This document shows positions 11,546-64,000 of a stretch of 64,000 nucleotides of DNA, piece by piece. Source of the stretch: Chitinophagales bacterium. Its GTDB lineage: Bacteria; Bacteroidota; Bacteroidia; Chitinophagales; LD1. Position numbers and translations under genes: made by a program. The number at the start of each line of letters is the position of its first letter. Position 1 is the stretch's first letter. The stretch spans positions 154,731-218,730 of the forward strand of contig JBGAHI010000004.1 in NCBI GenBank assembly GCA_044226285.1, given 5' to 3'. The notes under the pieces are model-generated. The model made no database searches, was not told where the DNA came from, and was given only the letters and a program-made list of their open reading frames with translations.

Positions 11546-13102
<1,557 letters not shown>

Positions 13103-13285
13103 TTACTCAATGTATTGTTAATATGAGGATTAGTCCGTTAAAACGGATTGTTTGTGGTATCAAATATGTTCTTAAGTACGTATAAATTAAATATGCGTGA
13201 CAAAAATCCCCTTTGAAATGCAAAAAAAATATGCAATATCGCATATCGTTTAAAAACAAGGCAAACATTGAAAACAGGAGCAATT

Positions 13286-17531: not shown

Positions 17532-17677
17532 GATAATGGTTGATTTTGAATTCAATATAAATAATAAAAACAATTGGTTTCTCTTATTAGACGACAAAAT
17601 GGTTAACGTCCATTTGTTTCCAATAAAAATTGTAAGTTCGATTTAACACTTTCATTAACGCAACCACAACCATTGGT

Positions 17678-19873
17678 ATGAAACACAAAATTCTTTTTTG
17701 TATTTGCTCCTTTTTATCGTTGATTGCTTTCGGGCAAAAAGACTTTTCACAGTATGTGAATCCATTTATTGGAACTGGCGGACACGGGCATACTTTCCCT
17801 GGGCCAACGGTTCCATTTGGCATGGTGCAATTGAGTCCGGATACACGATTAAAAGGCTGGGATGGTTGCTCAGGATATCATTACTCCGACAAAGTGATTT
17901 ATGGCTTTTCGCATACCCATTTGAGCGGAACCGGTTGTAGCGACTATGGTGATATCTTGTTGATGCCTACTGTTGGTAAACCAAAATTCGGGCATAAAAA
18001 TTATTCTTCTGCCTTCAAAAAAGAAAATGAAAAATCAAGTGCTGGATACTACTCTGTGTTTTTAGAAAAGCCGAAAGTAAAAGTAGAGCTAACCGCCACA
18101 ACTCGAACAGGTTTGCACAGATATACTTTCCCGAAATCTTCATCCGCCAATATCATTCTTGATCTTACACACCGCGATATGGTGAAGCACGGAGAGCTGA
18201 ATATTGTTGGTAATAATGAAATCAATGGTAAACGCATCAGTACGGCTTGGGCTAATAATCAAATGTTGTTTTATGTCATTCAGTTTTCAAAACCCTTTGT
18301 ACGGTCGGGTATTGTAAAGGCCAATGTGGCGAATGAAAGTTTGAAACATGATACCGGTAGTTTACTGAAAGCCTTTGTGAGCTTTAATACAGAAGAAGGT
18401 GAGGTAATTTATGCACGCGTAGGTATATCGGCTGTGAGTATTGAAAATGCAAGGAAAAATCTTGAACAAGAACAGCCTGATTTCAATTTTGAAAAAGTAA
18501 AAAGCAATGCTGTTTATGCATGGAATAATGAGTTAAATAAAATTGACATTGAATCGACTGACGAAGCATCGAAACAAAAATTTTACACAGCATTGTATCA
18601 TTGTATGATTTCACCTAACATGTATATGGATGTAGATGGAAGTTACCGTGGGCGAGACTTTCAGGTGCATCAAACGCCATCGTTCAATTACTACACAGTG
18701 TTTTCGTTGTGGGATACGTATAGAGCACTACATCCATTGCTAACGCTAATTGATAAAGAACGAACCTCGGATTTCATTAACACGTTTATAAAGCAATATG
18801 AAGAAGGTGGCCGGTTGCCGGTTTGGGAGCTTTCGAGTTGTGAAACTGACTGTATGATAGGTTACCATGCCATTCCTGTAATTGCAGAGGCGTTCATGAA
18901 AGATGTAAAAAACTTCAATCAGGAAAAGGCATACGCGGCCATGAAAAATAGTGCCATGGAAGACCGAAACGGTTTGCGCAGCTATAAAGAAAATGGATAT
19001 ATCAAGTTTATGGGTGAAGGACAGAACGTTTCACGCACTTTAGAATATGCTTATGATGATTGGTGTATAGCGATGGTTGCAAAGAAAATGGGTAAAACAG
19101 AAGATTATAATTACTTCATTAAACGAGCATTGAACTATAAAAATTTGTTTGACCCTTCTACCGGTTTTATGCGACCGAAACAAGATGTATTTATGTCGCC
19201 TTTCGACCCCTACCGCGTAGATCACAATTACACTGAAGGAAATGCTTGGCAATATTCGTTTTATGTACCACAAGACTTGAGTGGACAGATGACCTTATTA
19301 GGAGGAAAAGAAAAGTTAGTTGCGTTTTTAGATTCGTTGTTCACCACGTCATCAAAACTTACCGGACACTCACCACCCGACATTACCGGCATGATTGGTC
19401 AGTATGTACATGGGAACGAACCTAGTCATCAAATTGCCTATGAATATAACTATGCAGGTCAACCATGGAAAACACAAGCCATGACGCGTAGAATAATGAA
19501 TGAAATGTATCATGCAGCACCGGATGGTTTAGCCGGCAACGAAGATTGCGGACAAATGAGTGCTTGGTATGTGATGAGCGCATTAGGCTTTTATGCAGTT
19601 TGCCCGGGTGGTAGCCAATATGCCATTGGTTCTCCGATTTTTTCGACTGCTACCATTCGATTGGAAAACCAAAAGCAGTTCACTGTGAAAACGATTGGCA
19701 GTGGGGCTTATATCCAATCGGCACAATTGAATGGGAAGCCATATAATAAAAGTTATCTGGAATATAGTGATATTAATAGTGGGGGAGTAATCGAATTTAC
19801 GATGGGAAGCGAACCCAATAAAAACTGGGGAAGCGGTGTTTCGGAAGTTCCGGTAACAAAAATTGGGGAATGA
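17678..19873 (+). CDS. GH92 family alpha-mannosidase
   Basis: Signal peptide plus FIGTGGHGHTFPGPTVPFGMVQLSPDT and GNEPSHQIAYEYNYAGQPWKTQ, both hallmark GH92 blocks. Confidence 0.9.
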   Translation: MKHKILFCICSFLSLIAFGQKDFSQYVNPFIGTGGHGHTFPGPTVPFGMVQLSPDTRLKGWDGCSGYHYSDKVIYGFSHTHLSGTGCSDYGDILLMPTVGKPKFGHKNYSSAFKKENEKSSAGYYSVFLEKPKVKVELTATTRTGLHRYTFPKSSSANIILDLTHRDMVKHGELNIVGNNEINGKRISTAWANNQMLFYVIQFSKPFVRSGIVKANVANESLKHDTGSLLKAFVSFNTEEGEVIYARVGISAVSIENARKNLEQEQPDFNFEKVKSNAVYAWNNELNKIDIESTDEASKQKFYTALYHCMISPNMYMDVDGSYRGRDFQVHQTPSFNYYTVFSLWDTYRALHPLLTLIDKERTSDFINTFIKQYEEGGRLPVWELSSCETDCMIGYHAIPVIAEAFMKDVKNFNQEKAYAAMKNSAMEDRNGLRSYKENGYIKFMGEGQNVSRTLEYAYDDWCIAMVAKKMGKTEDYNYFIKRALNYKNLFDPSTGFMRPKQDVFMSPFDPYRVDHNYTEGNAWQYSFYVPQDLSGQMTLLGGKEKLVAFLDSLFTTSSKLTGHSPPDITGMIGQYVHGNEPSHQIAYEYNYAGQPWKTQAMTRRIMNEMYHAAPDGLAGNEDCGQMSAWYVMSALGFYAVCPGGSQYAIGSPIFSTATIRLENQKQFTVKTIGSGAYIQSAQLNGKPYNKSYLEYSDINSGGVIEFTMGSEPNKNWGSGVSEVPVTKIGE

Positions 19874-19977
19874 TAAGCCTCGCCTTTACTTAGTCCTGAA
19901 ACAAGTTCTTGCCTTTTAGTTTTTTAGATAAAAAAGATATATTTAATTTATTATATACATTCAACAGTTTAAATAAT

Positions 19978-49253: not shown

Positions 49254-49411
49254 CTACTATTTATGTCGTTCGTTTTTATATGAAAAAGAAGACTGGGAAA
49301 CCAAGCGGTCATGGTATGAAAAACAATTTGCTTGGGACTATTATGAATGTGATGAAGTTGGTATAAGGCAACTGTTTTTCTTTCCTTTCTTTTAAAAGTA
49401 TTTTTTTGTCT

Positions 49412-50248
49412 ATGAATGAGGAGTCGAACCATCCAAAACCAGTTCAAATAATAACAGCTGATCCATTCACTTTAGCACAATATTGGAAGCTAATGAAAAA
49501 GCATCGTAGTTTGATTTGGGTATTTGCACTGCAAGAAATCAGAACTATGTATGCGCAAACATACTTAGGCATCGTTTGGGCTGTGGTTCGTCCGTTGGTT
49601 TCGCTTATAATTTTCACGATTATTTTTAGTTACTTTCTAAAGGTGAAAACAGCTACACCCTATTATCTGTTCGCTTTTACAGGGATGATTGCATGGAATC
49701 TGTTCTCTCAATTAACTACTCAAGCTTCTTCGGCCATACTTCAAAAACAATATCTTATACGAAAACTATTTTTCCCAAAAATGGTGCTTTTTCTTTCAAA
49801 AGTCATCATTGTTTTAATAGAATTTGGGGTATCGCTCTCCCTTTTACTGGTATTTCTACTTTTTGACAATGTGCCATTTGGTATACATCTCTTGGCTTTA
49901 CCTGCATTTTTATTGTTAGACATTATTTTAGGTTTAACTATTGCATTGTGGATGAGCTCATTTACCATTCGTTTTAGAGATTTAAACCAACTATTACCCA
50001 CTATTATTGGAATTGGTATTTGGGTAACGCCAGTGTTCTTTCCGTCAACAATTATTCCGGAGAAATACAACTTCTTTGTATTCGCTAATCCCATGGGAGG
50101 GATAATAAAGGGTTTCCGATATGCACTTTTAGGCGAACCATTCCCGGAACTTGCCTATTGGTGGGCAATTCTTGTTGTTATTGTGTTGTTTTTTGTAGGT
50201 GTTTGGTATTTTATCCAAAAAGAAGACAATATCGTTGACTATGTATAG
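49412..50248 (+). CDS. ABC-2 type transporter permease (Wzm/TagG/KpsM-like polysaccharide exporter subunit)
   Basis: LIWVFALQEIRTMYAQTYLGIVWAVVRPL is the typical ABC-2 N-terminal block, and there are 6 TM helices. The ATG at 49412 is preferred over the TTG at 49406. No ATPase gene is adjacent. Confidence 0.8.
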   Translation: MNEESNHPKPVQIITADPFTLAQYWKLMKKHRSLIWVFALQEIRTMYAQTYLGIVWAVVRPLVSLIIFTIIFSYFLKVKTATPYYLFAFTGMIAWNLFSQLTTQASSAILQKQYLIRKLFFPKMVLFLSKVIIVLIEFGVSLSLLLVFLLFDNVPFGIHLLALPAFLLLDIILGLTIALWMSSFTIRFRDLNQLLPTIIGIGIWVTPVFFPSTIIPEKYNFFVFANPMGGIIKGFRYALLGEPFPELAYWWAILVVIVLFFVGVWYFIQKEDNIVDYV

Positions 50249-50311: not shown

Positions 50312-51193
50312 ATGCAAGTAGAATACCAAATCGGAGATCAAACTATCTTCCTAAACCTAAAAGGTGAGGTAGTACAAGGTGAAGAAAAAACTCTTCTTCA
50401 GGATGACGATAATTTATTGGCACATACCCCATCGGGAGAAACCGGATTTATTGTCGCTCCTTTTTTAACTGCTAAAGAGTTTGATAGTATTTATTCGGGA
50501 ATAACGTCAATGGTAAAGGCTTTGATTCGAAAAGTAAAAGGGGAAATAGATGATGATTTTTGTCTTGAACATTATCACCACTATGTAACAGATAGTGAAC
50601 ACTTACAAATAGCAAAACTAATACAGTATGGATGGAATGTAAGTGAATTCCCTATCGATTTTAGAAAAGTGGAGGAGCGAATTTCTACCATTATTGGAAT
50701 TGATGTTACCGCTGAGGCTCACCACTTAAACCCTGAATCGTTTATATCAGGATTATATGCGAACGACAAAAAAGTACAAATCTTTAACTTAAGGATAGTG
50801 AGACCCCAAAAACTACTCGACAGTAATCCGCCACACCGAGATGTATGGATTGATCGATTGAGAAATGCTATAAATATTTATTGCCCTATTTGTGGAAGCA
50901 CAGCTAAGAGTTCGCTTCCGCTCATTCCTTATAGTCATCATTTCAAAGAATCGGAAATCGAAAGAACTTCTAATGGAGCAACCCTAAACGGCACAAGTTA
51001 TTCTGTTCCATGTGTTACACTTTTACAAGGTAAGCCGCCACATCTAATACGACCTAATCCAAAACAAAATGAACTATTACTTTTTTCTCCATATCTAATT
51101 CATGGAGGTGGTTATAACTTTGAGGAAGAAGTAACCAGAGTTTCGCTTGAGATTAGGTTTTGGCGTTCGCCTGATATCTTACAACCCAAGTGA
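50312..51193 (+). CDS. Fe(II)/2-oxoglutarate oxygenase, PhyH-like
   Basis: H-x-D in PPHRDVW, SLPLIPYSHHF (like the vipGSH block), a distal His in YLIHGGGYN and Arg in RVSLEIRF. Confidence 0.6.
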   Translation: MQVEYQIGDQTIFLNLKGEVVQGEEKTLLQDDDNLLAHTPSGETGFIVAPFLTAKEFDSIYSGITSMVKALIRKVKGEIDDDFCLEHYHHYVTDSEHLQIAKLIQYGWNVSEFPIDFRKVEERISTIIGIDVTAEAHHLNPESFISGLYANDKKVQIFNLRIVRPQKLLDSNPPHRDVWIDRLRNAINIYCPICGSTAKSSLPLIPYSHHFKESEIERTSNGATLNGTSYSVPCVTLLQGKPPHLIRPNPKQNELLLFSPYLIHGGGYNFEEEVTRVSLEIRFWRSPDILQPK

Positions 51194-52126
51194 CGCACGC
51201 ACCTTATATCGGCCTTGATGCAGTAGTTTTCGTTGTGCTTTAAACAAAGAAAAATACAGGTACCCATAGATTACCAATACTACCAATACACTAAAGTTTA
51301 CCATTGCCAAAAAAAAATTGGTGTAGCAGCTGGAAGTATAATTCACAATATTTATAACTGCGCCAGTAAAGAGTATGAACAGCATAGAAGACGGAAGTAC
51401 AAATTGCCTTACTTTTTTTGACGAATATGTATATATCAGTTTTAATGCCCAAAGCCCTTGAATAATTAGTTGATGACCGGAAACCCCTGCATATCGGCTA
51501 TTGTGGGAAACAGAAACCCAATCTGTAGTATTAGCATGTGCATGTGCAATTCCGTCAATAAACACAATAGGGGGAAGAGATGAAGAAGTGTTGAATAACG
51601 CTCTTTTAAAAAGTCGAAATGGACTTCCCTGCATTGATGTTCCTAGGCATAAATGAAAGGCATGAAGTGCCATCCGACTGGCTACATTTCGCCAAAAGGA
51701 ATGCTTTCGGAGGACCGGGGTACCATAAATAATATCAGCATCTTGGAATTGTTGTTTCTCGATAAGCTTAGGGATATCTGAAGGAGAAAACTGAAGATCG
51801 TCATCTAATGTAATTATGAACTCCCCTTGTGCATGTTGAATACCACAAAAAATGGCAGTATGTTGACCTACGTTTGTTTGAAGCCGAACTGCTTTTATGT
51901 TTCCAATAGTTTTTGAAATGGTTTGAATATTCTCCCATGTATTGTCTGGGCTAGCATCGTCAACGATTATGATTTCAAAAGAATTTGTTGTCCGTGAAAG
52001 AACATCATAGACTTGTTGGTAGATACTATTCACAACGCATCCACTTTTGTATGCAGGTATAATTACAGAATATCCAATTATAGAATGGTGAAGCATTGTG
52101 TTAAAACACTTGATTTTATATAGCAA
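51179..52126 (-). CDS. GT2 polyprenyl-phosphate glycosyltransferase (ArnC/GtrB/DPM1-like)
   Basis: YSVIIPAYK...EIIIVDDASPDNT...ITLDDDLQ followed by two C-terminal TM helices, the architecture of undecaprenyl-phosphate sugar transferases. An alternative start (MLHHSII) lies at 52096. Confidence 0.75.
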   Translation of the reverse strand: MLYKIKCFNTMLHHSIIGYSVIIPAYKSGCVVNSIYQQVYDVLSRTTNSFEIIIVDDASPDNTWENIQTISKTIGNIKAVRLQTNVGQHTAIFCGIQHAQGEFIITLDDDLQFSPSDIPKLIEKQQFQDADIIYGTPVLRKHSFWRNVASRMALHAFHLCLGTSMQGSPFRLFKRALFNTSSSLPPIVFIDGIAHAHANTTDWVSVSHNSRYAGVSGHQLIIQGLWALKLIYTYSSKKVRQFVLPSSMLFILFTGAVINIVNYTSSCYTNFFLAMVNFSVLVVLVIYGYLYFSLFKAQRKLLHQGRYKVRASLGL

Positions 52127-53082: not shown

Positions 53083-53814
53083 ATGAATCCAAAAGAACCT
53101 TTTTTTTACATTACAAAAAAGTGGTATACCGGCTCTGCACCTGCATTTTACAACAATAGTGAATTCCCTTTGACTAAACTCTTGGAGGATAATGCATCGA
53201 TAATCATTGAAGAGATTACACATTTTTACCAGACAAAACCTGAGCAATTAACTACTAATTTTGTACCCTACAATGTAGATGTAAAAGGATGGGATACGAT
53301 GGTATTATACTCGTCAGGCATTCTAAATAAACATTTTTTGCCTTTTTTACCAAAGACATGGGCACTAATAAAAGATTACCCTGGCTTGAGTTTGGCAATG
53401 GTATCTGTTCTTAAACCTGGGGTCAGGCTTAAGGCTCATTTTGGAGATACAGATGCGATGGTTCGAAATCATTTGGGTGTTGTAATTCCAGAACCTTACC
53501 CTAAAGTTGGAATGCGCATAAAAGCAGAGGAAAGGGCATGGGAAGTGGGTAAAGTATTGTCTTTTTGTGTTGTTAATAGGCATTACGCATGGAATTACTC
53601 TGATAAACCTCGTTTAATCTTAATGGTAGACTTTATTAAACCAGAGTTCCTTCACCGTAAAAAAGAAATAGAGGGGAAAATATTAGCTGCCGAAGGCATG
53701 AAACTTTTCGCCACCAAATTTCCCATAACAAAAAAGCTACCAAGATGGGTAACCATGTTTCTTTTGAATGTATTGGGGGTAGTCGCAAATTGGTATGTGA
53801 AGTTTTTTAAGTAA
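53083..53814 (+). CDS. Aspartyl/asparaginyl beta-hydroxylase family Fe(II)/2OG oxygenase (LpxO-like) with C-terminal TM helix
   Basis: LKPGVRLKAHFGDTDAMVRNHLGVVIPE matches the H.G...R.HL.L..P core of PF05118. The C-terminal hydrophobic segment is WVTMFLLNVLGVVANWYV. Confidence 0.7.
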   Translation: MNPKEPFFYITKKWYTGSAPAFYNNSEFPLTKLLEDNASIIIEEITHFYQTKPEQLTTNFVPYNVDVKGWDTMVLYSSGILNKHFLPFLPKTWALIKDYPGLSLAMVSVLKPGVRLKAHFGDTDAMVRNHLGVVIPEPYPKVGMRIKAEERAWEVGKVLSFCVVNRHYAWNYSDKPRLILMVDFIKPEFLHRKKEIEGKILAAEGMKLFATKFPITKKLPRWVTMFLLNVLGVVANWYVKFFK

Positions 53815-53818
53815 TATG

Positions 53819-55792
53819 TTATTTTGACTCCTTCGACACCATTATAAACCTGCCAAGTGTATCGAAATGGGTATAAGTATCGGCTAGATATGGTGGGATA
53901 CAGTAGTCCTTATACAAAGTATCGAGCAATAAATAATTAGGCTGTAGTTTTTGTATCATAGTAAGTACAACCTCCTTTTCGTTTTGCGCATTTTGAAAGC
54001 TATTGTAAAGATTACTTCGCTTAAAAAAAGTAAGACGAGGCAAGTCGCCATTTCCTGAAAAAGTATCCAAAGGAATCGTATTTAACCGATGAAATTCTGC
54101 GCCTGTTAGATAAGCTCTTAAATACGGTAGATGAGCCATAAAAATAGACTCTTGATACTTAAACTTGCAACTATCCGAAACCACAATACCAATATCGACT
54201 ATGTCGTTCTTTGATAACAATTGACGCCACTTTATAGCCTCCCCTTTACTCACTTGACTGCGATTTTTCCACTCGTCATCATAGCCTAAACTAAACCGCA
54301 TAAACCCCTTAATCCCATCATTATTGTTAACTTGTAAATACCTCTCGTATATTGCAACTATACTCATACCTACCAAAAATAATGCTCCGTAACGCATGAA
54401 AGATTTCTTGTTAAAAGCAGTAATAAAAAGACCTACGGAGCCAATAGGGGCTAAAAATGCAATCAAATAAATGGCCCAAATCTGCCTGCTATCTCCGCCT
54501 AAATGTGAATAAACAAGAGAGAAAACCAAAATTGCACTACACAATAATGCTAATTGTATACACACAAAAAAAGGAGACAACGAGTCTTTCTTCCAGCCAT
54601 AAAGACCGTATAAAAAAGGGATAAAAAACACTAAGGATGCAGTAGTGAGCAATATCTGTCGCACAACAATCTGCATAAAGGAGTAAGAAAATAAACTATT
54701 AGAAACTATTGCGTAGTTCCGTCCGTCTATTTGACTGTATATATATGGACTAATCGAAAAAAACAATGCGAAAAGCAACTGGGGGTACGTTAGTGGAATA
54801 TAAATAACTAACCCTCTCTTATTACTGGTAATAATTTTGATTCCGATAAGCCCTATCATCATAATGGGCATTATTAATGCAACAGACGGATGCCACACAG
54901 AAACCAATCCCAAGCCTACTAAACCGATAAAGTACAGCTCATTCAAAATGATGATATAGAAAAGTAACACGGAAACGGCTAATACTAAAAAAGTCGGGCA
55001 GTTAAAAAGAGTATCCTCTACACAAGCAGATTCCATTTTTCCGATACTGCTAAAGGCGGGTATAAACTGAAGACCTGCATACATAAAAACAAATACAGCT
55101 AAAGAAAATACCAAACCCGTTCGAGCGCCTAAAGTTGTTGTCGACATGACGCCTATCAATAAAAAAACAAATAATTGATGAAAAATAACTTTATAGACAA
55201 TCACATAGCTGTAATAGGGCATGACCCCAAAATAATAGCTATATAACCCGGCAAACCAAGCATCTGCAAAATGATGAAACCCTCTATTTTGGTCATTTTG
55301 AAACATAAATCGAGAAGTTTCTGCTATCCCTCTTTTATAAAACTCATATCCAAAACCTCCAGAGTTGGCATAATCCCAATTTCCGACTCTTATATTGTTT
55401 CCAACACGCAAATCTGCCCAGTTCATCTCAAACACTAATAAGGCTAATGATAAACCTATCGCTACTACCCATTGCATGGTAGGAATAGCTTTAATATCAC
55501 TCCATATTCCCTTTGGTTTTAACTGCCATAAGAAGGGTAAGAAAAACACAAAAGGAAGCAACATGGTATGCAACCCTGCATGAAAAATAGCCACAAGAGC
55601 AGTGCCTACTATGGCTCCCATAGCCATACGAGCACTCACATTACCCCAAGGTGTAGAAAGGCGGGGCGTAAAGAAAGAGCCTAGAAGATAAATGAAAGGA
55701 AAACTAAAAAATACAGCTAAAAAAATAGTAGGTTGAAAAGGCGAAAATAGGTCTTTCATAGGAGCAAAAATAACAGAGATAATCAAAATCAT
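53819..55792 (-). CDS. Large polytopic membrane protein with a C-terminal soluble domain (GT-C-like architecture; function unknown)
   Basis: Roughly 12-14 predicted TM helices over ~480 aa, then a ~170-aa hydrophilic domain. I recognise no catalytic motif. An alternative start (MKDLFSPF) lies at 55759. Confidence 0.5.
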   Translation of the reverse strand: MILIISVIFAPMKDLFSPFQPTIFLAVFFSFPFIYLLGSFFTPRLSTPWGNVSARMAMGAIVGTALVAIFHAGLHTMLLPFVFFLPFLWQLKPKGIWSDIKAIPTMQWVVAIGLSLALLVFEMNWADLRVGNNIRVGNWDYANSGGFGYEFYKRGIAETSRFMFQNDQNRGFHHFADAWFAGLYSYYFGVMPYYSYVIVYKVIFHQLFVFLLIGVMSTTTLGARTGLVFSLAVFVFMYAGLQFIPAFSSIGKMESACVEDTLFNCPTFLVLAVSVLLFYIIILNELYFIGLVGLGLVSVWHPSVALIMPIMMIGLIGIKIITSNKRGLVIYIPLTYPQLLFALFFSISPYIYSQIDGRNYAIVSNSLFSYSFMQIVVRQILLTTASLVFFIPFLYGLYGWKKDSLSPFFVCIQLALLCSAILVFSLVYSHLGGDSRQIWAIYLIAFLAPIGSVGLFITAFNKKSFMRYGALFLVGMSIVAIYERYLQVNNNDGIKGFMRFSLGYDDEWKNRSQVSKGEAIKWRQLLSKNDIVDIGIVVSDSCKFKYQESIFMAHLPYLRAYLTGAEFHRLNTIPLDTFSGNGDLPRLTFFKRSNLYNSFQNAQNEKEVVLTMIQKLQPNYLLLDTLYKDYCIPPYLADTYTHFDTLGRFIMVSKESK

Positions 55793-56035: not shown

Positions 56036-57106
56036 ATGAATAACCCTATTAAAAAGTCAAAAACAATACTGCTCGTATTTTTTTCAATATTGCTTGTAGT
56101 ATTTCTGACTGGAGAGATAGGGTTACGGCTAAAGGGATTTAAAATGATGAGACTCACCACCCAACCCAGAAGCCTCTTAACTGCTGATTCTGTTTCTGGA
56201 TGGAAACTAACTGAAGGAACATACACTATATGTTTTAATGACTCCAATTCTTTTTTTGTTGCCACTGTAAATCAAAAAGGGGATCGAATAACTTCTATGA
56301 ATGCGCAAAGCTATGATACGGGCAAAGTAACTACTATACAAATTTACGGTTGTTCTTGCACTTTTGGATTCTCGGTACCAGATAGTTCTACGCAAAGTTT
56401 TATATTACAAAGTAAACTTCCTAATTGTCGGATCCAAAATAAAGGAGTACCTGGATATGGACTTGCGCAAATGTTTTTGCATTTACAACAAGTGGTATCT
56501 AGCGGTGACACTCCTCAAGTAGCCGTTTTTAATTACGCAAATTTTCAAGAAAGACGAACGGCTCTTAGTACTGAATGGGGCAGTGTTATTTCCCTTTTAG
56601 TTGAAGCTGAACCGTCCGATAAAAAAGGCGCCAACAAATCAGGTAGACTTACGCTACCATACTATGATATAAAGCAAGATTCGCTTTGGTTACACTACTC
56701 TGATTTTAGTGAGTTAGAGCATCTTTGTCCGCTCGTAAATTACTCCTCTTTACTATTGCTTTCAAACATACAATATGTACAATATAAAGACCAAGAAAAA
56801 ACAAACGCTTTTCATGAAACAGCAACTAAAACAGCTTTTGAAATCATGAAGTATTGTAAAAGCCATAGAATTACACCAATTTTTGCAAGCTTAACAGAAT
56901 CAGAAGACAGTTCACAAATAGATGATATTTCATTAAAACTCAAGCAATCAGGGTATTTAACGCTTAATTACGGCATTACTTTTGATGACAATAGATATAA
57001 TAAACCATTATCAAGAGATAAATCACATCCTAATTCAACAGCACACGCAGTTTATGCCGATAAACTATACGCTTACCTAATGGAAAAAAAATTAATCCTT
57101 AAATAA
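56036..57106 (+). CDS. Membrane-anchored SGNH/GDSL-type hydrolase or acyltransferase
   Basis: N-terminal TM helix, block I-like IYGCSCTFG, and block V-like DKSHPNSTAH (D-x-x-H). Confidence 0.5.
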   Translation: MNNPIKKSKTILLVFFSILLVVFLTGEIGLRLKGFKMMRLTTQPRSLLTADSVSGWKLTEGTYTICFNDSNSFFVATVNQKGDRITSMNAQSYDTGKVTTIQIYGCSCTFGFSVPDSSTQSFILQSKLPNCRIQNKGVPGYGLAQMFLHLQQVVSSGDTPQVAVFNYANFQERRTALSTEWGSVISLLVEAEPSDKKGANKSGRLTLPYYDIKQDSLWLHYSDFSELEHLCPLVNYSSLLLLSNIQYVQYKDQEKTNAFHETATKTAFEIMKYCKSHRITPIFASLTESEDSSQIDDISLKLKQSGYLTLNYGITFDDNRYNKPLSRDKSHPNSTAHAVYADKLYAYLMEKKLILK

Positions 57107-57159
57107 CACGCACATTTTTTTTGAAAAGATTTTGTTTTAAAAAAAATCCATGTTTACAA

Positions 57160-59601
57160 ATGACCACATTAGCTATTCTTAAAAAAAAAATGGTCCTACA
57201 TATAAAAAAAATGTGGTGGCTATTTACTTTTTTATGCGTTTGGGTGTGTATAGCTTCTTACCCTACTCAGCTAACGCATAAAGTTAACATAAATCAATCC
57301 GATGCTTTAGAATACCAGGTTTGTGCATACAACTTAGTGAAGTATGGAGTATTCCCAAAACTTAAAGTACATGGTCAACTTTCTGACTATGCTATTGATA
57401 GCAATACCAATATGCCACTTAGTAGCAGAATCTTTACAGCGCTTATTTTAAAACACCCCCCAATAGATGATTTTTCAAAACCCCCTCTCTATTCCTTGCT
57501 ACTTGCATTGGTCTACTTTCTAGCAGGCACAAATTTTAACAATGCCGTTTTTTTCCAACTGATTTTAGTATCGCTTACTACCGCATTACAACCATATCTA
57601 GGTTGGCGCTTAATGGGAAAAAAGGGCGTTGTTATAGGAATCATTTCTGCTTACTTTTATTTTCAAAGTTCCATAGACGAAATCCATCTCCTCTACCCCC
57701 ACTTTTTAGTGCAACTTATTTTATTAGTAGTTATTATAATTAACGAAAACCAACACCCCAAAAGATGGCAAATACTACTTACTGGATTTCTCTTAGGATG
57801 CTGTGTACTAACCAATGGAAATACGATTTTTATTCCATTCATGTATTTTTTATATCAATTGCTCCTTTACATTAAAAAGAAGATTTCAGGTGAATTTTTC
57901 CAGGGGTGGTTTGTTTTTTTATGTGTATTAGCGCCCTGGGTAGTTTTCGCCAATTTAGAATTATCAAAAACGAAAAATGAGCGAACGATTTGGAAACAGA
58001 ATCTGTGGAAGGGTGTAACTATTGAAAAATATAACACTACCTTTTTACTTGATAAAAGCCACCCCACCTTACAAGACAGTATTATTATTTTGAATTGTGT
58101 AAGAAACTTGTACAGTAAATTTGGAGAAGATGGATTTGTACTTATTTCAAAACAACCTTTTGGCGATGAAATATTAGGCACCCACAATGAATTTTGTGAA
58201 GATGGAAGATACCACCCTGAATGGAGATTCTTATCCAACTCCTACCACAACCGTCAAAACACAGGTCGTTCTACTCTCGTAAAAATTATTCTATTTTATA
58301 AGGACAACCCCTCTTTTATTTTAAAAAACATAACCGGTAAATTTTCAGGGACTACCAGTGGGTATTCCTTCTTATATTATCTTTCGGGGATATTTCTCTT
58401 ACTAATTCCCCTTTACAACAAGCTTCAAAAGTATTCCTTTTTGGGAGTAGCAGCAGTTATTTTGAGCGCTTATTTTTTATTGCCTTTTGAGTATTATATC
58501 GTTCTTTTTTTAGTAGGAATAGTAGCAGGGAATCTCTTTGTTTTTAGTGGAAAATACGAAATGGATATATCTCCTATCTGGATTTTTGCAATTACTAATA
58601 CTGTGTTTATTACTATATTTTTTTTGGGGGAAGCAAGATATGTAGCCATTCTAAATCAATTTATACTTATTATTTTGTTTGCATTAACTGCAATTTTTAT
58701 AAAACCTTTTTTTGTGCATGATTTTAGTTTTTATAAAACCAAAGGGGCTTTGCTTTATAAAAAATACATTCCGAAATTTAGGCTTTTTGAAGTAGTACTT
58801 ATGTCGGGTTATTTTATAGTAGCCTTTGCATTTGCGAATGATGCAATTGTAGTATCTAAAGTACTTACATCCATGGTTTATTACTTTGCAATCTTGTGCT
58901 ATATCGCATCGGTATACATGTTAAATTCATTTGCTGATTATGATTTAGATAAAGTTAATCCTCGCTTACAATATTTGAGCAGCTTTAAAAAAACGAGTTA
59001 TTTGTTGTGGACAGTTATTTTCTTATTACTGAGCTTATGTATTACTTTTTTCCTTAACAGAAAAATTGCCGTTTTTTTTTCCTTTTCGTACCTCTTATGG
59101 TATTTGTATTATTGCCCCCCTTTCCGGTATAAAAACTCGATATTAATTGGAACAGTTATCCATTTTGTTTCGGGCATATTACATTTTCAAATCGGATTTG
59201 AAGTTGCACAAACCGCAGGCTATTTATCCTTTATGATTTCTTTGTTTTTTGCGACACTACTCAGTATGGGGCATTTAAACCACGAGCTGCTCGATTTAGA
59301 TGCAGACCAAAAGTTTGGCATTAAAAACACTGCCATTACCTTTGGCAGAAAAAATGTTATTTGCCTCTTCTACGCACTATTTTTTCTTTCGCAAATATAC
59401 CTGTTGCTTATGTTCAAATGGAAATTTATTGACAAGTATGAACTAATACCGTTTCTTTATTTGCCGGTTATTGCTACCCTTTTTGTTGTGGGGGAAAAGC
59501 AAAAGCTCTTGCAACCGAAATACATTCAAAAATTATTCAGAATACTTTTGCTCATCAGTTCGATAGTACTCATCGCGCTAAAACTTATTGCTGTTCAATA
59601 G
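57160..59601 (+). CDS. Fusion protein: ArnT/PMT_2-type GT-C glycosyltransferase domain plus C-terminal UbiA-family prenyl/phosphoribosyl transferase domain
   Basis: The N-terminal part has the first-loop acidic motif DALEYQVCAYNLVKYG and SKPPLYSLLLALVYFLAG (the KPPL block of the ArnT family). The C-terminal part has NSFADYDLD (NxxxDxxxD) and LDLDADQKFGIKNTAITFG (second Asp-rich UbiA motif). The start is ambiguous: TTG 57121, or ATG at 57160, 57190 or 57211. Confidence 0.7.
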   Translation: MTTLAILKKKMVLHIKKMWWLFTFLCVWVCIASYPTQLTHKVNINQSDALEYQVCAYNLVKYGVFPKLKVHGQLSDYAIDSNTNMPLSSRIFTALILKHPPIDDFSKPPLYSLLLALVYFLAGTNFNNAVFFQLILVSLTTALQPYLGWRLMGKKGVVIGIISAYFYFQSSIDEIHLLYPHFLVQLILLVVIIINENQHPKRWQILLTGFLLGCCVLTNGNTIFIPFMYFLYQLLLYIKKKISGEFFQGWFVFLCVLAPWVVFANLELSKTKNERTIWKQNLWKGVTIEKYNTTFLLDKSHPTLQDSIIILNCVRNLYSKFGEDGFVLISKQPFGDEILGTHNEFCEDGRYHPEWRFLSNSYHNRQNTGRSTLVKIILFYKDNPSFILKNITGKFSGTTSGYSFLYYLSGIFLLLIPLYNKLQKYSFLGVAAVILSAYFLLPFEYYIVLFLVGIVAGNLFVFSGKYEMDISPIWIFAITNTVFITIFFLGEARYVAILNQFILIILFALTAIFIKPFFVHDFSFYKTKGALLYKKYIPKFRLFEVVLMSGYFIVAFAFANDAIVVSKVLTSMVYYFAILCYIASVYMLNSFADYDLDKVNPRLQYLSSFKKTSYLLWTVIFLLLSLCITFFLNRKIAVFFSFSYLLWYLYYCPPFRYKNSILIGTVIHFVSGILHFQIGFEVAQTAGYLSFMISLFFATLLSMGHLNHELLDLDADQKFGIKNTAITFGRKNVICLFYALFFLSQIYLLLMFKWKFIDKYELIPFLYLPVIATLFVVGEKQKLLQPKYIQKLFRILLLISSIVLIALKLIAVQ

Positions 59602-60433
59602 GTTTTGTACACTGCAAAACGCAGTAATCAATAATCCCTTTTTCGACAAGTAATTTTAACGACACACAGGCCTTATAATGATTATACAACAGTTCACTAT
59701 CTTCTTTTTTGATTTGTTCCATTTTCGTTAATGCACCATAATATGATTTTTCGATACCGGGCATAACAAAATTGAGAATGGAGGTTACTTCGATATTATC
59801 GAATCCTGCTTTTAATAATCTCTTCGCAGGCAGATCGATATAATGATTGACCGCCCATCCTTGCTGAAAAGCATTAAGGGCTGACATTGTTTCGGCATCC
59901 GTAGGTTTCAAAACTTCTATATAATCGATTATGAGCAACTTCCCTCCTGGTTTTAACACTCTAAACATTTCGACAAGAAATTGTTCCTTCGATTCAGAGT
60001 GACACATACTCTCAATCGCATAGGCAACATCTACACTATTGCTTTCCAGCGAAGTATTGGTATAGTCTTCTTCTAAAAAAACAATGTTGTTCAGCGGTTT
60101 TGCTTTTTGTTGTGCAAATGCAATTTGACTTCGAGAAATATTGATTCCGATGAGATGATGTTGTGGAAATTGTTCTTTCAAAAAGAACAAAGTTCCACCT
60201 ATTCCGCAACCTGCATCTACTACAGTTTGTGCATCGCTATTCCCTAAGCTCAATTGTGCGGCAATAAAGCTGTTCATTCTTAGCTTTGCTTGGTCATTAT
60301 CTTCAACTGAATCACTAAAATAACCCATGTGCATAGCTAAAGAATTAGGATTGTGTCCTTGCATAAATCGTTCTAGCCAGCATACATCATAATAGTCTAG
60401 AATTTGTTGTGTATATTTTTCTGCTTTGTTCAT
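59585..60433 (-). CDS. Class I SAM-dependent methyltransferase
   Basis: Motif I VVDAGCGIGGT and post-I/II blocks LIGINIS and LKPGGKLLIIDY. The YYD...W...F N-terminal block is as in lipid and sterol-type methyltransferases. It lies 6 nt downstream of the radical SAM gene. Confidence 0.8.
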   Translation of the reverse strand: MNKAEKYTQQILDYYDVCWLERFMQGHNPNSLAMHMGYFSDSVEDNDQAKLRMNSFIAAQLSLGNSDAQTVVDAGCGIGGTLFFLKEQFPQHHLIGINISRSQIAFAQQKAKPLNNIVFLEEDYTNTSLESNSVDVAYAIESMCHSESKEQFLVEMFRVLKPGGKLLIIDYIEVLKPTDAETMSALNAFQQGWAVNHYIDLPAKRLLKAGFDNIEVTSILNFVMPGIEKSYYGALTKMEQIKKEDSELLYNHYKACVSLKLLVEKGIIDYCVLQCTKPIEQQ

Positions 60434-60439
60434 TTTCGG

Positions 60440-62029
60440 TTATGATATTGCTGTTTGCTTTGTTGCCGTAAGCGTTAGCGAAATAATTTTTTCCTTATTC
60501 TTAACTGGATCATATTCACTTTTCAGCTTCTGCATAAAAGTAAAATTATCGCTTCCCTGTTTTATTTTCTTCGGTTTAAAGAAACGAAGAAGTTTTTCGG
60601 AATAAAACCCAAGAATTCCTATTCCTCCAATAAAGTTGAGTTTTACTTCGTGAAAACTTCGTGTATTGTATAATCGCTTAAGAATATATGTCGGGCGTAG
60701 ATAAAATGAAAATGTCATTTTTCTGTAGAGTTTTTCAACATCTTCAGTGCTTAAGCTATCAATATTAATAATAGGTGTTGATCCATAGTATTTATCCCAA
60801 TCATAGGTCAAAATTTTGTCTTCTCTAATGGTCTTATTGAATACATCATTCCCCGGGAAAGGTGTAAGTATCGAAACAGAGATGAGATCAGGATCGAGTT
60901 TTTTCAATAAGCGAATATTATCATTTACAACTTCATGCGTATCGCCTTCGTTGCCAACAATCATACATACCCTCGACTCGAGTTTTGCTTTTTTTGTCCA
61001 AAGCATTGCATTAAATACCTTCTCCACCTCAACTCCTTTTTGAATATTATCGAGAATTTTCTGGTCGAAATTTTCAACCCCATACATGATTCCCCAACAC
61101 CCTGCTTTCTTCATTAATAAAAGCATTTCTTCATCCACAATATCCACCCGTGCAAAACATTGCCATTGAACGTCTAATGGTTTTTCAATCAGCAAATTGC
61201 AAAAATCGGTAACCCGTTGTTTACTCACAGTAAACACATCATCCATTATGGCCACGTCTTTAACACCGTATTTTTCGTTTAAATATTTGAATTCGTTGTA
61301 TAAACTTTCTGCACTTCGATATGTCCACATTTTCCCAACTGTACGTCTACAAAAGCTGCACGACCAAGGGCATCCTCGACTTGTAACAATCATCATAGCC
61401 GGCAAACGTTTAAAATTTCCAATAATTGGGCGATAGGAATTTATATCAATCAAATCATAGGCCGGCATAGGTAGATCGTCTAGCGCTTTATTTCGAGAAC
61501 GCGACTTGTTTCGAATAAATTCTACAACACCATTGGTATTCTTCTTATATGCTAGTCCATTGATATTCTCGAAGGGTTGTCCCTGAAGAAGTTCAAGCAA
61601 AGTATCTTCCCCCTCTCCGATTGCCACACAATCAACCGATTCATTACTAAGTGCTTCATCGGGCACAAATGAAGCATGTGAACCCCCTAAAACAAAAACT
61701 GTATCAGGATAATAGAATTTACAGAGGGCAGCCAATCGATACGACACATTTATTGTTGGGGTAGTTGTAGTTACGCCAATCACTTTTATTGAACTAAATT
61801 TTTCAACGTAATTTTTTATAAACCAAAGCTCAAACTCTAAATCGGTATCTTTAAAATAATAATTGCAATCCACTATTTGAACGGAAAAATGGTGTTCCCT
61901 AACATATGCGGCTAATGCTGTTAACCCCAATGGGACATCTATCGTTCTTTGTCCATAGTAAATACCTTTAGGAAAAAAGAATGGTGGGTTAATCAACAAA
62001 CAATCCAATATGATTTTATCATTTTCCAT
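60440..62029 (-). CDS. B12-binding-domain radical SAM protein (class B, COG1032-type)
   Basis: CxxxCxxC cluster in SRGCPWSCSFCRR. The N-terminal ~150 aa has a Rossmann-like cobalamin-binding-domain pattern (VIGVTTTTP...VLGGSHAS). Confidence 0.8.
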   Translation of the reverse strand: MENDKIILDCLLINPPFFFPKGIYYGQRTIDVPLGLTALAAYVREHHFSVQIVDCNYYFKDTDLEFELWFIKNYVEKFSSIKVIGVTTTTPTINVSYRLAALCKFYYPDTVFVLGGSHASFVPDEALSNESVDCVAIGEGEDTLLELLQGQPFENINGLAYKKNTNGVVEFIRNKSRSRNKALDDLPMPAYDLIDINSYRPIIGNFKRLPAMMIVTSRGCPWSCSFCRRTVGKMWTYRSAESLYNEFKYLNEKYGVKDVAIMDDVFTVSKQRVTDFCNLLIEKPLDVQWQCFARVDIVDEEMLLLMKKAGCWGIMYGVENFDQKILDNIQKGVEVEKVFNAMLWTKKAKLESRVCMIVGNEGDTHEVVNDNIRLLKKLDPDLISVSILTPFPGNDVFNKTIREDKILTYDWDKYYGSTPIINIDSLSTEDVEKLYRKMTFSFYLRPTYILKRLYNTRSFHEVKLNFIGGIGILGFYSEKLLRFFKPKKIKQGSDNFTFMQKLKSEYDPVKNKEKIISLTLTATKQTAIS

Positions 62030-62222: not shown

Positions 62223-63098
62223 ATGAAATCAAGGGTATTTATTGACGGCTTGTTGGAAAACAAGTTACAAAAAAACGGTTTTGTTAAAATTCCTTTTTGG
62301 TCAGAAGACATTGTTGAGAAAGTACGCAATACCTTTGAGTCCGAATTCTATGAAAAGCATTCCTCCTCTAAAAAATTTAACACCACCTACGAGACGGTAA
62401 ACCTAACTTTAATTGACCGCGTTAAAGCTTATTTAGAACCTCTTTTTATAGAAAACGCAAAAAAATTATTTGCGGATATGCGACCTATTAGTGCCAGCTT
62501 TTTGGTAAAGGAGCCCGGAGTTAACTCGGAATCACCTCTCCATCAAGATGCTAGTTTTGTGGATGAACCCGAGCACTGTTCTGTATCGGTATGGGTAGCC
62601 CTTCAAGATTGCAATGCACAAAACAGTTGCTTACAGTTTATACCGGGTAGTCATAAATTATTTACGGGCATTCGATTTATTCCATATACGAATCAAACCG
62701 TTGATGAGCATAAACATCGACTAATGCCATACCTTACTCAACACACGATTAAGGCAGGAGAGGCATTTGTGTTCTACAACGCAACGTTACATGCTTCGGG
62801 AAATAATCTAAGCGATACTCCACGATTAGCGGCAGTTATGGGTTTTTACAGCGCAAGTACACTATTGAGCCTATACAAAAAGAACGAATCCAACAACCAA
62901 ATCGACAGATTTAGCATATCAGTTGAACAATTGAAACAAATCAACGATGTTTTTCTTCCAAGTGAGGAACAACGTATAGAGTCGTTAGCTTTACCTTTGA
63001 ATATAACATCGAAGGAGGTAAGCCGTTTTCTAAAAGAAGAATTCAGCTTACCGAAACGAATTTTAGCTTGGGCAAACAAATATATAAACCCTAATTAA
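62223..63098 (+). CDS. Phytanoyl-CoA dioxygenase (PhyH) family Fe(II)/2OG oxygenase
   Basis: SPLHQDASFVD (HxD), VWVALQD, LQFIPGSHK, and a distal His in ATLHASGNN. The ATG at 62223 is preferred over the TTG at 62202. Confidence 0.75.
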   Translation: MKSRVFIDGLLENKLQKNGFVKIPFWSEDIVEKVRNTFESEFYEKHSSSKKFNTTYETVNLTLIDRVKAYLEPLFIENAKKLFADMRPISASFLVKEPGVNSESPLHQDASFVDEPEHCSVSVWVALQDCNAQNSCLQFIPGSHKLFTGIRFIPYTNQTVDEHKHRLMPYLTQHTIKAGEAFVFYNATLHASGNNLSDTPRLAAVMGFYSASTLLSLYKKNESNNQIDRFSISVEQLKQINDVFLPSEEQRIESLALPLNITSKEVSRFLKEEFSLPKRILAWANKYINPN

Positions 63099-63146
63099 TG
63101 CTATATTAGTAAGCCGATTACCGGACAAAAACTTTTATGTTTTAAG

Positions 63147-64000
63147 ATGAATGGAACAAAACACATAGCACAAGTTGGCATCGAAAAACTCGGGTTTTAT
63201 TTGTTTGATTTTTTATCGGAAAGCAACATTCAGGCACTAGGTGAACTTTATTATGCTTGTTATGGTAACGACCCGTCAAACGGAATGGTCGTTTCGCATA
63301 ATCACGGAGATGCAGCATTTAATATATCCGTTAGCCATAAAATAAATGCAATTCTTGGAAAATCTATTGAATCCCAATTCCCGGATTACCGTTTTTTTCT
63401 TTCGCATTTTGCAGTTAAAAAGGCAGGAAATGAAAACAGTTTTGAACTACATCAAGACTGGTCAATTGTTGATGAATCGCAATTTAATAGCTATCAAATT
63501 TGGATTCCGTTAAAATTGAGCTATCCTGAAAATGGAGGCATGTGTTTCATACCACGAAGCCAACACTTCAATACTAATATACGATCCGGTAGTTTCGGCA
63601 TTCCGGCAATCCCTATTACTTCTGCTGTATATCCGTATCTCTCTTATGCAAGAATATTTCCCGGACAAGCTGTAGCCTTTTCGAACAACCTCCTTCATGG
63701 ATCGTTTTCAAACCCAACCGATGAAGATAGAATATCGGTTATTGTTAACATAGTTCCTAAAATGGCTGATACAACTTATTTCCATTTTAATAATAACACA
63801 CGACAAACAGAAGTTTATTCGATAGATGCAGAAACTTTGCTAACTCATTTGCCTCGTCTTGAAAAAGGAGAAATGCCCTTAAACTATGCACCTAAAGCTA
63901 TTATTGATGCTCCTAAACAAAACAATAAAGCCATTAGTTTTTCGGATGTTTTAGATTGGATAAAAACAGACAGACATGAGCTAGGATTGAAGGATAACTA
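63147..64000 (+). CDS. PhyH-like Fe(II)/2OG oxygenase; the 3' end lies beyond the window
   Basis: Hand translation from the ATG at 63147 gives MNGTKHIAQVGIEKLGFYLF...ELHQDWSIVDE (HxD)...IWIPLK...MCFIPRSQH...LLHGSFSN. The frame is open to the window edge, so it is not in the ORF track. Confidence 0.65.
   Translation, partial: MNGTKHIAQVGIEKLGFYLFDFLSESNIQALGELYYACYGNDPSNGMVVSHNHGDAAFNISVSHKINAILGKSIESQFPDYRFFLSHFAVKKAGNENSFELHQDWSIVDESQFNSYQIWIPLKLSYPENGGMCFIPRSQHFNTNIRSGSFGIPAIPITSAVYPYLSYARIFPGQAVAFSNNLLHGSFSNPTDEDRISVIVNIVPKMADTTYFHFNNNTRQTEVYSIDAETLLTHLPRLEKGEMPLNYAPKAIIDAPKQNNKAISFSDVLDWIKTDRHELGLKDN

Follow-up and report, generated by a model that had tools for sequence, protein, structure and literature searches.

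Why should a locus for the export of a glycopolymer carry a dozen oxygenases of the Fe(II)/2-oxoglutarate (Fe/2OG) type? The question is raised by the right-hand end of a 64,000-nucleotide stretch of DNA (the window; C5:154731-218730) from a Chitinophagales bacterium, whose genome comprises 3.62 Mb in 12 contigs and whose AtpD is 84-91% identical to proteins of metagenome-assembled genomes from uncultured Chitinophagales and Bacteroidetes. Two adjacent genes at this end, called A and B here, encode proteins of the phytanoyl-CoA dioxygenase (PhyH) family, and a preliminary description of the window placed them, together with two more oxygenases, in an envelope-glycan locus with an abnormal number of such enzymes. 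To our knowledge, the Fe/2OG oxygenases that act on bacterial envelopes are limited to a few single-enzyme cases (LpxO, KdoO, OlsC), and those that act on sugars to a handful of antibiotic pathways. Within the locus of genes A and B (the C5 locus), 12 Fe/2OG domains lie beside a Wzm/Wzt exporter and sugar genes, so that the envelope-glycan setting and the excess of oxygenases both stand. Throughout a family of uncultured Chitinophagales this arrangement has been conserved, and it most likely represents a conserved, uncharacterised chemical editing of an exported envelope molecule.

Gene A (62223-63098, + strand) encodes a protein of 291 amino acids (aa) that matches the Pfam PhyH family (PF05721; gathering threshold 22 bits) at 6.2e-24 (85.9 bits). 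Gene B begins at 63147 on the same strand and runs 814 nt beyond the window end at 64000. Using C5 sequence fetched rightward of the window (L001 and L002; an L001 coordinate equals the window coordinate minus 62000), it has been possible to see that B is a 555-aa fusion of two PhyH domains (L001:1147-2814), in which PF05721 matches two stretches (9.6e-27, 95.1 bits). The piece of B within the window gives 1.5e-10 by itself; thus both open reading frames exist, both exceed the Pfam threshold, and the tandem PhyH-type pair described earlier is real, as is its clear divergence (24% identity between A and the N-terminal domain of B). Residues H107, D109, H190, and R201 of A are invariant across 9 orthologues and align with the HQD and distal His that bind the metal, and with the Arg that binds 2OG, in PHYHD1 and PhyH. 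In B, both sets of residues (H102/D104/H184/R195 and H393/D395/H476/R487) are invariant across 13 orthologues. The Arg for the C5-carboxylate of 2OG is positioned about 11 residues past the distal His (R201 in A, R195 and R487 in B). AlphaFold2 models of A (predicted local distance difference test, pLDDT, 89.5) and of fused B (pLDDT 85.6; predicted template modelling score 0.86) have the double-stranded β-helix (DSBH) fold, and all top Foldseek matches to these models are of the PhyH clade (probability 1.00): SnoK, DhiD, MysH, SyrB2, EctD, TlxIJ, SnoN, EvdO2, AviO1, EvdMO1, HygX, KanJ, and AndA. These matches are equally distant (template modelling (TM) score about 0.5, 0.46-0.63; 14-20% identity), with no clear nearest neighbour, and no solved chain found by Foldseek spans both domains of B (query TM score <= 0.31). 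Judged by their sequences, A and B are PhyH-family Fe(II)/2OG oxygenases with intact sites and putative catalytic activity. The two genes also stay adjacent in the metagenome contigs L003 and L004/L005, which goes against the idea, entertained beforehand, that they belong to unrelated operons in relatives.

Beyond B, the same direction of transcription continues through PhyH genes C (L001:2832-3641; PF05721, 69.8 bits), D (L001:3635-4456; 65.6 bits), and E (L001:4437-5270; 80.6 bits) to the gene for a Wzt-type ATPase (L001:5254-6504). Because A-B-C-D-E-Wzt are separated by gaps of 48 and 17 nt and then overlap by 7, 20, and 17 nt, they are predicted to form one translationally coupled operon, which A opens. 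Converging on this operon are the gene for a WelO5-family, hydroxylase-type protein (L001:6488-7339, - strand; PF22814, 2e-35) and PhyH genes F (L001:7387-8235; 63.6 bits) and G (L001:8228-9079; 59.9 bits); all seven PhyH genes, A-G, exceed the PF05721 threshold. The ATPase is nearest to TarH/TagH, the Aquifex Wzt, and mycobacterial RfbE (1e-44 to 1e-37), and continues for about 170 aa past its nucleotide-binding domain, an extension that no Pfam family matches. A Wzm-type ABC-2 permease (ABC, ATP-binding cassette; 49406-50248, + strand; PF01061, 2.8e-10) forms the left edge of the locus, 17 kb upstream of the Wzt gene, so that an ABC-2 permease and a Wzt/TagH-type ATPase are both present. From this permease the locus runs about 45 kb, to a second carbamoyltransferase at L002 about 12822. 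Extending the window to the right, as had been advised, thus located the end of the locus, and most of the oxygenases lie past the window edge.

In total, the C5 locus holds 12 Fe/2OG domains in 11 genes within 31 kb: 8 PhyH domains in 7 genes, 1 probable PhyH-like domain, 1 WelO5-like, and 2 AspH-like. The four oxygenases in 14 kb that were counted earlier therefore understate the locus, and of those four, three are solid and one is only probable. This last gene (50312-51193, + strand) had been listed as a third PhyH-like gene. It has no Pfam match, reaches 27 bits (2.4e-6) against TIGR04324 with its cut-off of 150, and aligns with the gene A profile at an hhalign E-value of 0.11, but its H-R-D, P-Y-SH, H, and R motifs are aligned in register; from its sequence it is probably a divergent PhyH-like DSBH oxygenase, a distant relative and a candidate member. 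A gene said to be AspH/LpxO-like with a membrane anchor (53083-53814, + strand) does match PF05118 (Asp_Arg_Hydrox) over its full length (2.9e-30), and PF05118 is also found in a second AspH-like gene (L001:18658-19464). The first, however, is nearer to OlsC (NF052565, 107.4 bits versus a cut-off of 450) than to LpxO (NF033391, 49.4 versus 500), and its moderately hydrophobic C-terminal tail (mean Kyte-Doolittle value ~1.25 over 19 aa) contains no window at or above the threshold of 1.6; a membrane anchor is plausible.

Several more specific assignments were tried and rejected. LpxO or OlsC membership is far below the curated cut-offs, with only the Pfam-level PF05118 shared; Pfam and NCBIfam scans of the oxygenases of the locus gave only PhyH, WelO5, 2OG-FeII_Oxy_3/5, and Asp_Arg_Hydrox, without a match to a hydroxylase of 3-deoxy-D-manno-octulosonic acid (KdoO). 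LpxO and KdoO, the envelope precedents first invoked, are thus the wrong frame for PhyH genes that are coupled to a Wzt/TagH-type ATPase. Gene A scores 27.6 bits against EctD (TIGR02408; cut-off 336.5), and membership among the chlorinating enzymes is far below the curated cut-off. A halogenase of the SyrB2/WelO5 type (HxA/G), which had been put forward as an option, is excluded for every oxygenase of the C5 locus, since the PhyH domains all have HxD and the WelO5-family protein has H-C-E where the WelO5 halogenase has H-V-G. No transmembrane helix or signal-like N-terminus is predicted in any of these oxygenases; consequently, they are predicted to be cytoplasmic. A C-terminal amphipathic tail, a weak shift overall relative to background, is present in A and in most proteins of the core cassette described below, and absent in B-G.

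How unusual this concentration is can be seen from the rest of the genome. Just three places in the 3.62 Mb account for its 16 PF05721 hits: C5 has 8 in 8.8 kb, another contig (C3) has 6 in 8.6 kb, and a further C3 gene has 2. Such clustering is far beyond chance. The six C3 domains surround a second Wzm/Wzt pair (C3:223-232 kb), which matches TagH, galactan Wzt/RfbE, and Wzm/RfbD/KpsM models below their cut-offs, and the remaining two are joined in one 647-aa double gene (C3:187800-189743). The C3 locus, of about 17 kb, also contains a Bac_transf priming enzyme, a GT4 glycosyltransferase, AsnB, an SGNH protein, UbiA, a membrane-anchored methyltransferase, and an NAD-epimerase. When all 17 PhyH-type domains of the genome are aligned, the pattern HxD...H...(11)...R is found in all but one C3 copy, which has HxN, and pairwise identity is 17-41%. 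This low identity and the separate orthogroups to which the domains belong rule out a recent tandem duplication, and with the order of those orthogroups kept across genera they indicate, as far as sequence can, that the paralogues are old and specialised.

High copy number extends to the relatives. In a first sample, genomes from other genera of the same family all (18/18) have 6-27 PhyH hits; within the genus, four more complete genomes have 11-18 and two fragmentary assemblies 1-2. Most other families of the order have 0-3. Among 300 complete Bacteroidota genomes sampled, 202 have none and most others 1-6, and copy numbers of at least 9 do not occur outside this family and a single sister family. 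Orthologues of gene A itself are rare (17 hits among 5.8 billion proteins), and full-length orthologues of B occur in ~15/61 genomes of the family. A single-protein search of named genomes with A gave no match; a profile search of the same genomes found only a metagenome-assembled genome of the Chitinophagaceae and a weak match in Pseudomonadota.

The relation between the C5 and C3 arrays was addressed with 19 array regions fetched from relatives (G-numbered labels denote their genomes or arrays), which were annotated with this genome's proteins and a local PhyH hidden Markov model. A tree of 130 domain units from 16 array sets, in which the displaced C3 double gene is counted separately, defines a core cassette: orthogroup OG0, then the double gene OG3+OG2, then OG1, OG4, and OG5. 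The core order is fixed beside Wzm in L006, G016, G019, and G023, and G009 and G356 show a rearranged version; the core orthogroups occur in 8-10 arrays, with a median identity of 44-60% to the copies of this genome. In this genome the C3 locus is the core, but its double gene has been displaced and lies 36 kb away. The C5 genes fall outside the core, in orthogroups of narrower distribution (A, OG11; B, OG6+OG10; C-G, OG15, OG9, OG14, OG18, and OG7), and only one complete counterpart in the same order was found, on metagenome contig L003 (40-62% identity). Thus by orthogroup assignment the C5 array appears as a rarer accessory array, and the C3 type as the core cassette common across the family. 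The HxD...H...(11)...R pattern is present in the alignment of all 8 PhyH domains of the C5 locus and of every accessory orthogroup. Core and accessory arrays are contiguous in L003 and G023, which suggests that they serve one product. Of the 15 arrays covered by the partner count (from this genome, relatives, and metagenome contigs), 11 contain or abut Wzm and/or Wzt, and orthologues of the C5 permease (1e-74 to 2e-86) directly adjoin PhyH arrays in G016, G023, L004, and L006.

One orthogroup of the core departs from the usual active site. OG0, the first gene after Wzm in the core (L020:17386-18303, - strand, a C3 stretch of this genome that corresponds to C3:231386-232303), has H-x-N...H...R in 10/10 members examined, with Asn in place of the Asp of the triad (motif GEVPLHQNWAFV). 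This putative metal site is conserved and non-canonical, being neither the hydroxylase type (HxD/E) nor the halogenase type (HxA/G).

Neighbouring orthogroups have been joined repeatedly: as OG3+OG2, as OG1+OG4 (G019), as OG9+OG6 (G013), and as OG6+OG10 in B. Independent PhyH fusions were located at G019 18157-19977 (OG1+OG4), G013a 16674-18356 (OG9+OG6), G034 11685-13901 (OG0 and another), and L001:1147-2814 (OG6+OG10), and open frames of ~970 aa in G015, G016, G018, and G023 hint at candidate triple fusions. Repeated fusion of neighbours is a Rosetta-stone hint of hetero-oligomers like that of TlxI/TlxJ (PDB 7VBQ), in which two different PhyH-clade subunits work as one unit; by this analogy the fused and neighbouring oxygenases probably act as hetero-oligomers, and the 555-aa fusion suggests the same logic. 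It should be noted that TlxIJ, a fungal enzyme that acts on meroterpenoids, consists of two separate chains, whereas B is a single fused chain.

Taken together, the intact sites, the predicted cytoplasmic location, the coupling to Wzt, the repeated association with Wzm/Wzt, the sugar-tailoring context, and the old, ordered paralogues point to the oxidation of a polyprenyl-linked glycan before its export. We consider it somewhat better than an even chance that a cytoplasmic PhyH array carries out the late-stage oxidation of one lipid-linked envelope glycan before Wzm/Wzt export, with one site or reaction for each paralogue; the kind of substrate, the types of reaction, and the allotment of one site to each paralogue are all inferred. 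A and B would then stand first in an accessory array of PhyH oxygenases that are soluble and located in the cytoplasm. This array of 8 PhyH domains in 7 genes, together with the WelO5-family enzyme and the two AspH-like enzymes, would serve a Wzm/Wzt (TagGH-like) envelope-glycan pathway. Each paralogue would oxidise a different C-H position of one polyprenyl-(di)phosphate-linked glycan, or carry out a different reaction on it, at the cytoplasmic face of the inner membrane. The possible reactions include hydroxylation, oxidation of an alcohol to a ketone, epimerisation, and oxidative cyclisation. The multiple hydroxylations of one envelope molecule that were first suggested are therefore retained in part: several oxidations of one molecule is still the best reading, but hydroxylation is only one of several reactions that this clade performs on sugars. 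B12-radical-SAM (SAM, S-adenosylmethionine) C-methylases, SAM methyltransferases, carbamoyltransferases, and amino-sugar enzymes would share the same intermediate. The finished chain would leave through Wzm/Wzt, and outside the cell GT-C-like membrane enzymes would decorate it with polyprenyl-phosphate sugars.

Known enzymes provide partial parallels. Sugar-acting members of the PhyH clade, namely SnoK and SnoN of nogalamycin biosynthesis, EvdO1, EvdO2, EvdMO1, AviO1, and HygX of the orthosomycins, and KanJ of kanamycin, share fold and clade with the array, and sequence-profile matches to SnoK, EvdO2, and SnoN range from 1.5e-6 to 7e-6; the Foldseek E-values of these sugar-acting enzymes are ~1e-11 to 1e-10. 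The SnoK, Evd, HygX, and KanJ enzymes are soluble, act late on assembled glycosides, are encoded beside methyltransferases, aminotransferases, and carbamoyltransferases, and include cases in which several oxygenases work on one oligosaccharide. However, the array enzymes are 14-24% identical to them (TM score about 0.5), without specific orthology, and a specific relationship to the orthosomycin oxidative cyclases (EvdO/AviO/HygX) was rejected because these are not closer than other PhyH-clade enzymes. In addition, the actinomycete antibiotic clusters have 1-3 such enzymes, whereas here there are 8-16 per genome in fixed-order, Wzm/Wzt-coupled Bacteroidota arrays. Orthoester formation by HygX has been demonstrated in vitro (PMC13374393), and its metal site, H-x-G...E-x3-H (PMC13374393), is not present in the array.

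By gene context, a likeness is seen in Xanthomonas. In the Wzm/Wzt lipopolysaccharide (LPS) cluster of Xanthomonas citri, a single PhyH gene, XAC3597, adjoins wzm, wzt, and rfbC, and a biofilm-defect screen yielded a mutant with Tn5 inserted in this PhyH gene (PMC3130047); PhyH genes are also annotated in LPS cassettes of the BXO8 type (bioRxiv 10.1101/2022.03.02.482478). These O-antigen cassettes carry one or two PhyH copies, in contrast to an array. LpxO, OlsC, AspH, and KdoO resemble the system as Fe/2OG oxygenases that hydroxylate envelope molecules, and two genes of the locus share PF05118 with LpxO, OlsC, and AspH; the tandem genes A and B are PhyH proteins, of another family. Among solved structures, the animal-family proteins PHYHD1 and PhyH give the best sequence-profile matches (2.3e-12 and 1e-8), with HxD, distal His, and Arg aligned, but these are single enzymes, some acting on acyl-CoA, without exporter context, arrays, or fusions. 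Searches of the open-access literature found no description of arrays such as these, and the only related items were those on Xanthomonas and one on Poribacteria.

Several observations weigh against a lipid-linked glycan as the substrate. Among the 15 arrays, four show neither Wzm nor Wzt within the stretch covered. The core cassette of some relatives has housekeeping genes on its flanks and no glycan genes close by, and polymerising glycosyltransferases of the Leloir type are scarce in both the C5 and the C3 locus. In structure, the models resemble enzymes acting on sugars no more closely than those acting on amino acids or terpenoids (TM score about 0.5), a sugar and a lipid target are not distinguishable at the sequence level, and a polymer of repeat units should not need 8-16 different oxygenases. 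Finally, the arrays have as their best-conserved partners a UbiA-family protein and a methyltransferase whose nearest solved relatives include TleD besides sugar O-methyltransferases. These last points would fit a pathway in which the arrays oxidise a polyprenyl or meroterpenoid-like lipid installed by UbiA, or the polyprenyl carrier itself, with the methyltransferase and B12-radical-SAM enzymes methylating the chain and the ABC-2 transporter exporting a polyoxygenated lipid. UbiA (orthologues across arrays at 1e-34 to 4e-40) and the membrane-anchored methyltransferase (to 2e-146) are the most constant non-transporter partners; the methyltransferase matches TleD, a prenyl C-methyltransferase, and lipid methyltransferases of the cyclopropane-fatty-acid/mycolate type; PhyH and the structural neighbours AndA, SptF, and TlxIJ act on isoprenoid scaffolds; many distinct oxygenases suit a long non-repetitive chain better than a repeat-unit polymer; and the core cassette can stand without glycosyltransferases. 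Nevertheless this lipid pathway, though a serious competitor, is rather unlikely. The transporter is specifically of the TagH/Wzt/RfbE and Wzm/KpsM type, both loci of the genome are rich in sugar-modifying genes, and the best solved match of the methyltransferase is the sugar O-methyltransferase RebM (8e-20), a D-glucose O-methyltransferase being another match. UbiA-family enzymes also make polyprenyl-phosphate sugars, as does the mycobacterial decaprenyl-phosphate phosphoribosyltransferase. The UbiA partner here, whose best solved match is AfUbiA (5e-7), may serve either prenyl transfer or polyprenyl-phosphate-sugar synthesis.

The variety of oxygenases would also suit a defined, non-repetitive product, such as a heavily tailored oligosaccharide or glycolipid of the orthosomycin or aminoglycoside kind, for which the ABC-2 pump would provide export or self-protection. 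The enzyme set mirrors the tailoring of those antibiotics (PhyH oxygenases of the KanJ, EvdO, and HygX class, DegT, Gfo/Idh/MocA, a RebM-like methyltransferase, a B12-radical-SAM enzyme with a weak match to AprD4 at 5.8e-26, and carbamoyltransferases of the NodU/CmcH type), and relatives add an H-C-G WelO5 protein, a flavin halogenase, a CmlA-like enzyme, and a carrier-protein module. A secreted natural product, likewise a serious competitor, is nonetheless rather unlikely, given that the module is vertically conserved in nearly every genome of the family where secondary-metabolite clusters are patchy, that Bac_transf priming and GT-C-type envelope enzymes are present, and that the ATPase is nearer to TagH (1e-56) than to DrrA (2.6e-34). 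Far less probable is that the oxygenases, AspH-like enzymes, and B12-radical-SAM enzymes modify a ribosomal peptide or surface protein for which the ABC transporter is the exporter. Hydroxylation of side chains in proteins is an activity of the AspH family, pairs of B12-radical-SAM and Fe/2OG enzymes occur in proteusin-type pathways for ribosomally synthesized and post-translationally modified peptides (RiPPs), the radical SAM enzyme weakly matches RiPP models (e.g. ApyD, 1.3e-45, below cut-off), and cargo genes of the type IX secretion system adjoin the locus here and lie inside it in L003. Yet no precursor peptide, leader peptidase, or RiPP recognition element was noticed at the locus, its AspH-like genes are closer to lipid hydroxylases of the OlsC type, the transporter is of a glycopolymer type, and sugar genes dominate the locus. 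Hardly any credence can be given to oxygenases for catabolism or scavenging, such as phosphonate or organic-nutrient oxidation, whose clustering with envelope genes would be incidental. PhyH expansions in Poribacteria are partly linked to PhnY-type phosphonate use (PMC3909097). Gene A does match PhnY* weakly (1.2e-3), but this assignment was rejected at 18 bits versus a cut-off of 500; the last PhyH gene overlaps the start of Wzt, gene order is conserved across genera, and no uptake systems, SusC/D pairs, hydrolases, or PhnZ partners were seen at the locus.

If action on a lipid-linked glycan is correct, these arrays would be a new and large source of chemistry for the functionalisation of carbohydrate C-H bonds, of regio-specific biocatalysts for sugars, and of a new principle for surface-antigen diversity. 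A bolder version of the idea, which we put forward only tentatively, is that some Chitinophagales diversify a surface glycan not mainly with glycosyltransferases, but by C-H editing of a simple lipid-linked chain. Before export, a membrane-proximal assembly of 8-16 Fe/2OG oxygenases, some of them pseudo-heterodimer fusions, might yield keto, epimerised, C-hydroxylated, and cross-linked (orthoester or methylenedioxy) products, and halogenated ones in lineages with HxG sites; the core would supply the common chemistry and the accessory array the lineage-specific variation. The question has become a testable one, since the operon and its catalytic residues can be named, as can the pseudo-heterodimer fusion and the division into core and accessory orthogroups, and well-assembled relatives that bear the cassette have been identified.

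The remaining genes between the permease and gene A of the C5 locus are, in order of position, a GT2 glycosyltransferase that resembles polyprenyl-phosphate-sugar synthases and has a hydrophobic C-terminal region (51179-52126, - strand; PF00535, 4.7e-31); a 657-aa polytopic membrane protein with many hydrophobic segments and no Pfam or NCBIfam match (53819-55792, - strand); a weak SGNH/GDSL-like protein (56036-57106, + strand; NF047474, 3.6e-9, below cut-off); an 826-aa membrane fusion with a C-terminal UbiA domain (57121-59601, + strand; PF01040, 1.1e-16, residues 568-768), whose orthologue (5e-165) has the same position in L003; a class I SAM methyltransferase (59585-60433, - strand; Methyltransf_11, 1.9e-20), also with an orthologue in L003 (5e-92); and a B12-binding radical SAM enzyme (60440-62029, - strand; PF04055, 3.1e-17; PF02310, 3.1e-16). 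Counted over its whole length, the locus encodes SAM methyltransferases and two carbamoyltransferases, DegT, an oxidoreductase of the Gfo/Idh/MocA type, and a WbuX amidotransferase; it also has CN-hydrolase-like and SGNH-like genes and at least five large polytopic proteins, three of which are DUF6056-like. Its glycosyltransferases are two of the GT2 family and several GT-C-like membrane proteins only, and no priming enzyme was found in it. The commonest non-transporter partners across the arrays are the C3-type methyltransferase, which adjoins Wzt in the C3 locus and in G019, UbiA, the WelO5-like gene, the B12-radical-SAM enzyme, an unassigned 431-aa protein, and DUF6056.

Three B12-binding radical SAM genes are present in the locus (window 60440-62029, - strand; L001:19486 to L002:1063, + strand; L002:1060-2490, + strand). 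All are below every NCBIfam equivalog cut-off, with best partial matches to HpnJ, BchE, P-methyltransferase types, and AprD4. Such genes precede two of the three copies of a two-gene cassette, which pairs a ~480-aa polytopic DUF6056-like protein with a downstream protein of 144-172 aa that has a single hydrophobic segment, at its N-terminus (L001:11027-12493/10516-11034, - strand; L002:2480-3910/3920-4354, + strand; L002:4345-5817/5814-6299, + strand). The 431-aa protein (L001:9224-10519, + strand) is membrane-anchored, matches no family, and has counterparts beside accessory arrays in G007, G013, and L003 (1e-54 to 2e-80). By eye, it has a Cys...His...Asp motif like that of a transglutaminase core (LCGEKTG ... 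GHIVAELF ... HMFDAD).

The arrays of the relatives differ in their active sites and in their surroundings. In the WelO5-family gene that accompanies the arrays, the site is of a carboxylate type in this genome, G007, and G019 (H-C-E) and in G013 and G027 (H-x-D), and of the halogenase type, H-C-G, in L004 (L004:12714-13589, - strand), G023, and G009. One PhyH domain in G009 has H-Q-G; given such HxG sites, some lineages may halogenate the exported product. In the more distant metagenome contig L004/L005 (3497-9899 and 13650-15281), orthologues of A and B stand beside a Dlt-like module of an AMP-binding enzyme, a carrier protein, and an MBOAT protein, and the same stretch holds a CmlA-like β-hydroxylase, a flavin halogenase of the Trp type, a B12-radical-SAM enzyme, and Wzm. 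This gene context suggests aminoacyl esterification and halogenation of one exported molecule. In G009 (L022/L023; G009:C1:560000-599999), a 12-gene PhyH array with 13 domains occurs without Wzm/Wzt and is flanked by two ABC proteins of 590-645 aa that match Wzt weakly (6e-10 and 1e-13), so that a different type of exporter may serve the same cassette there.

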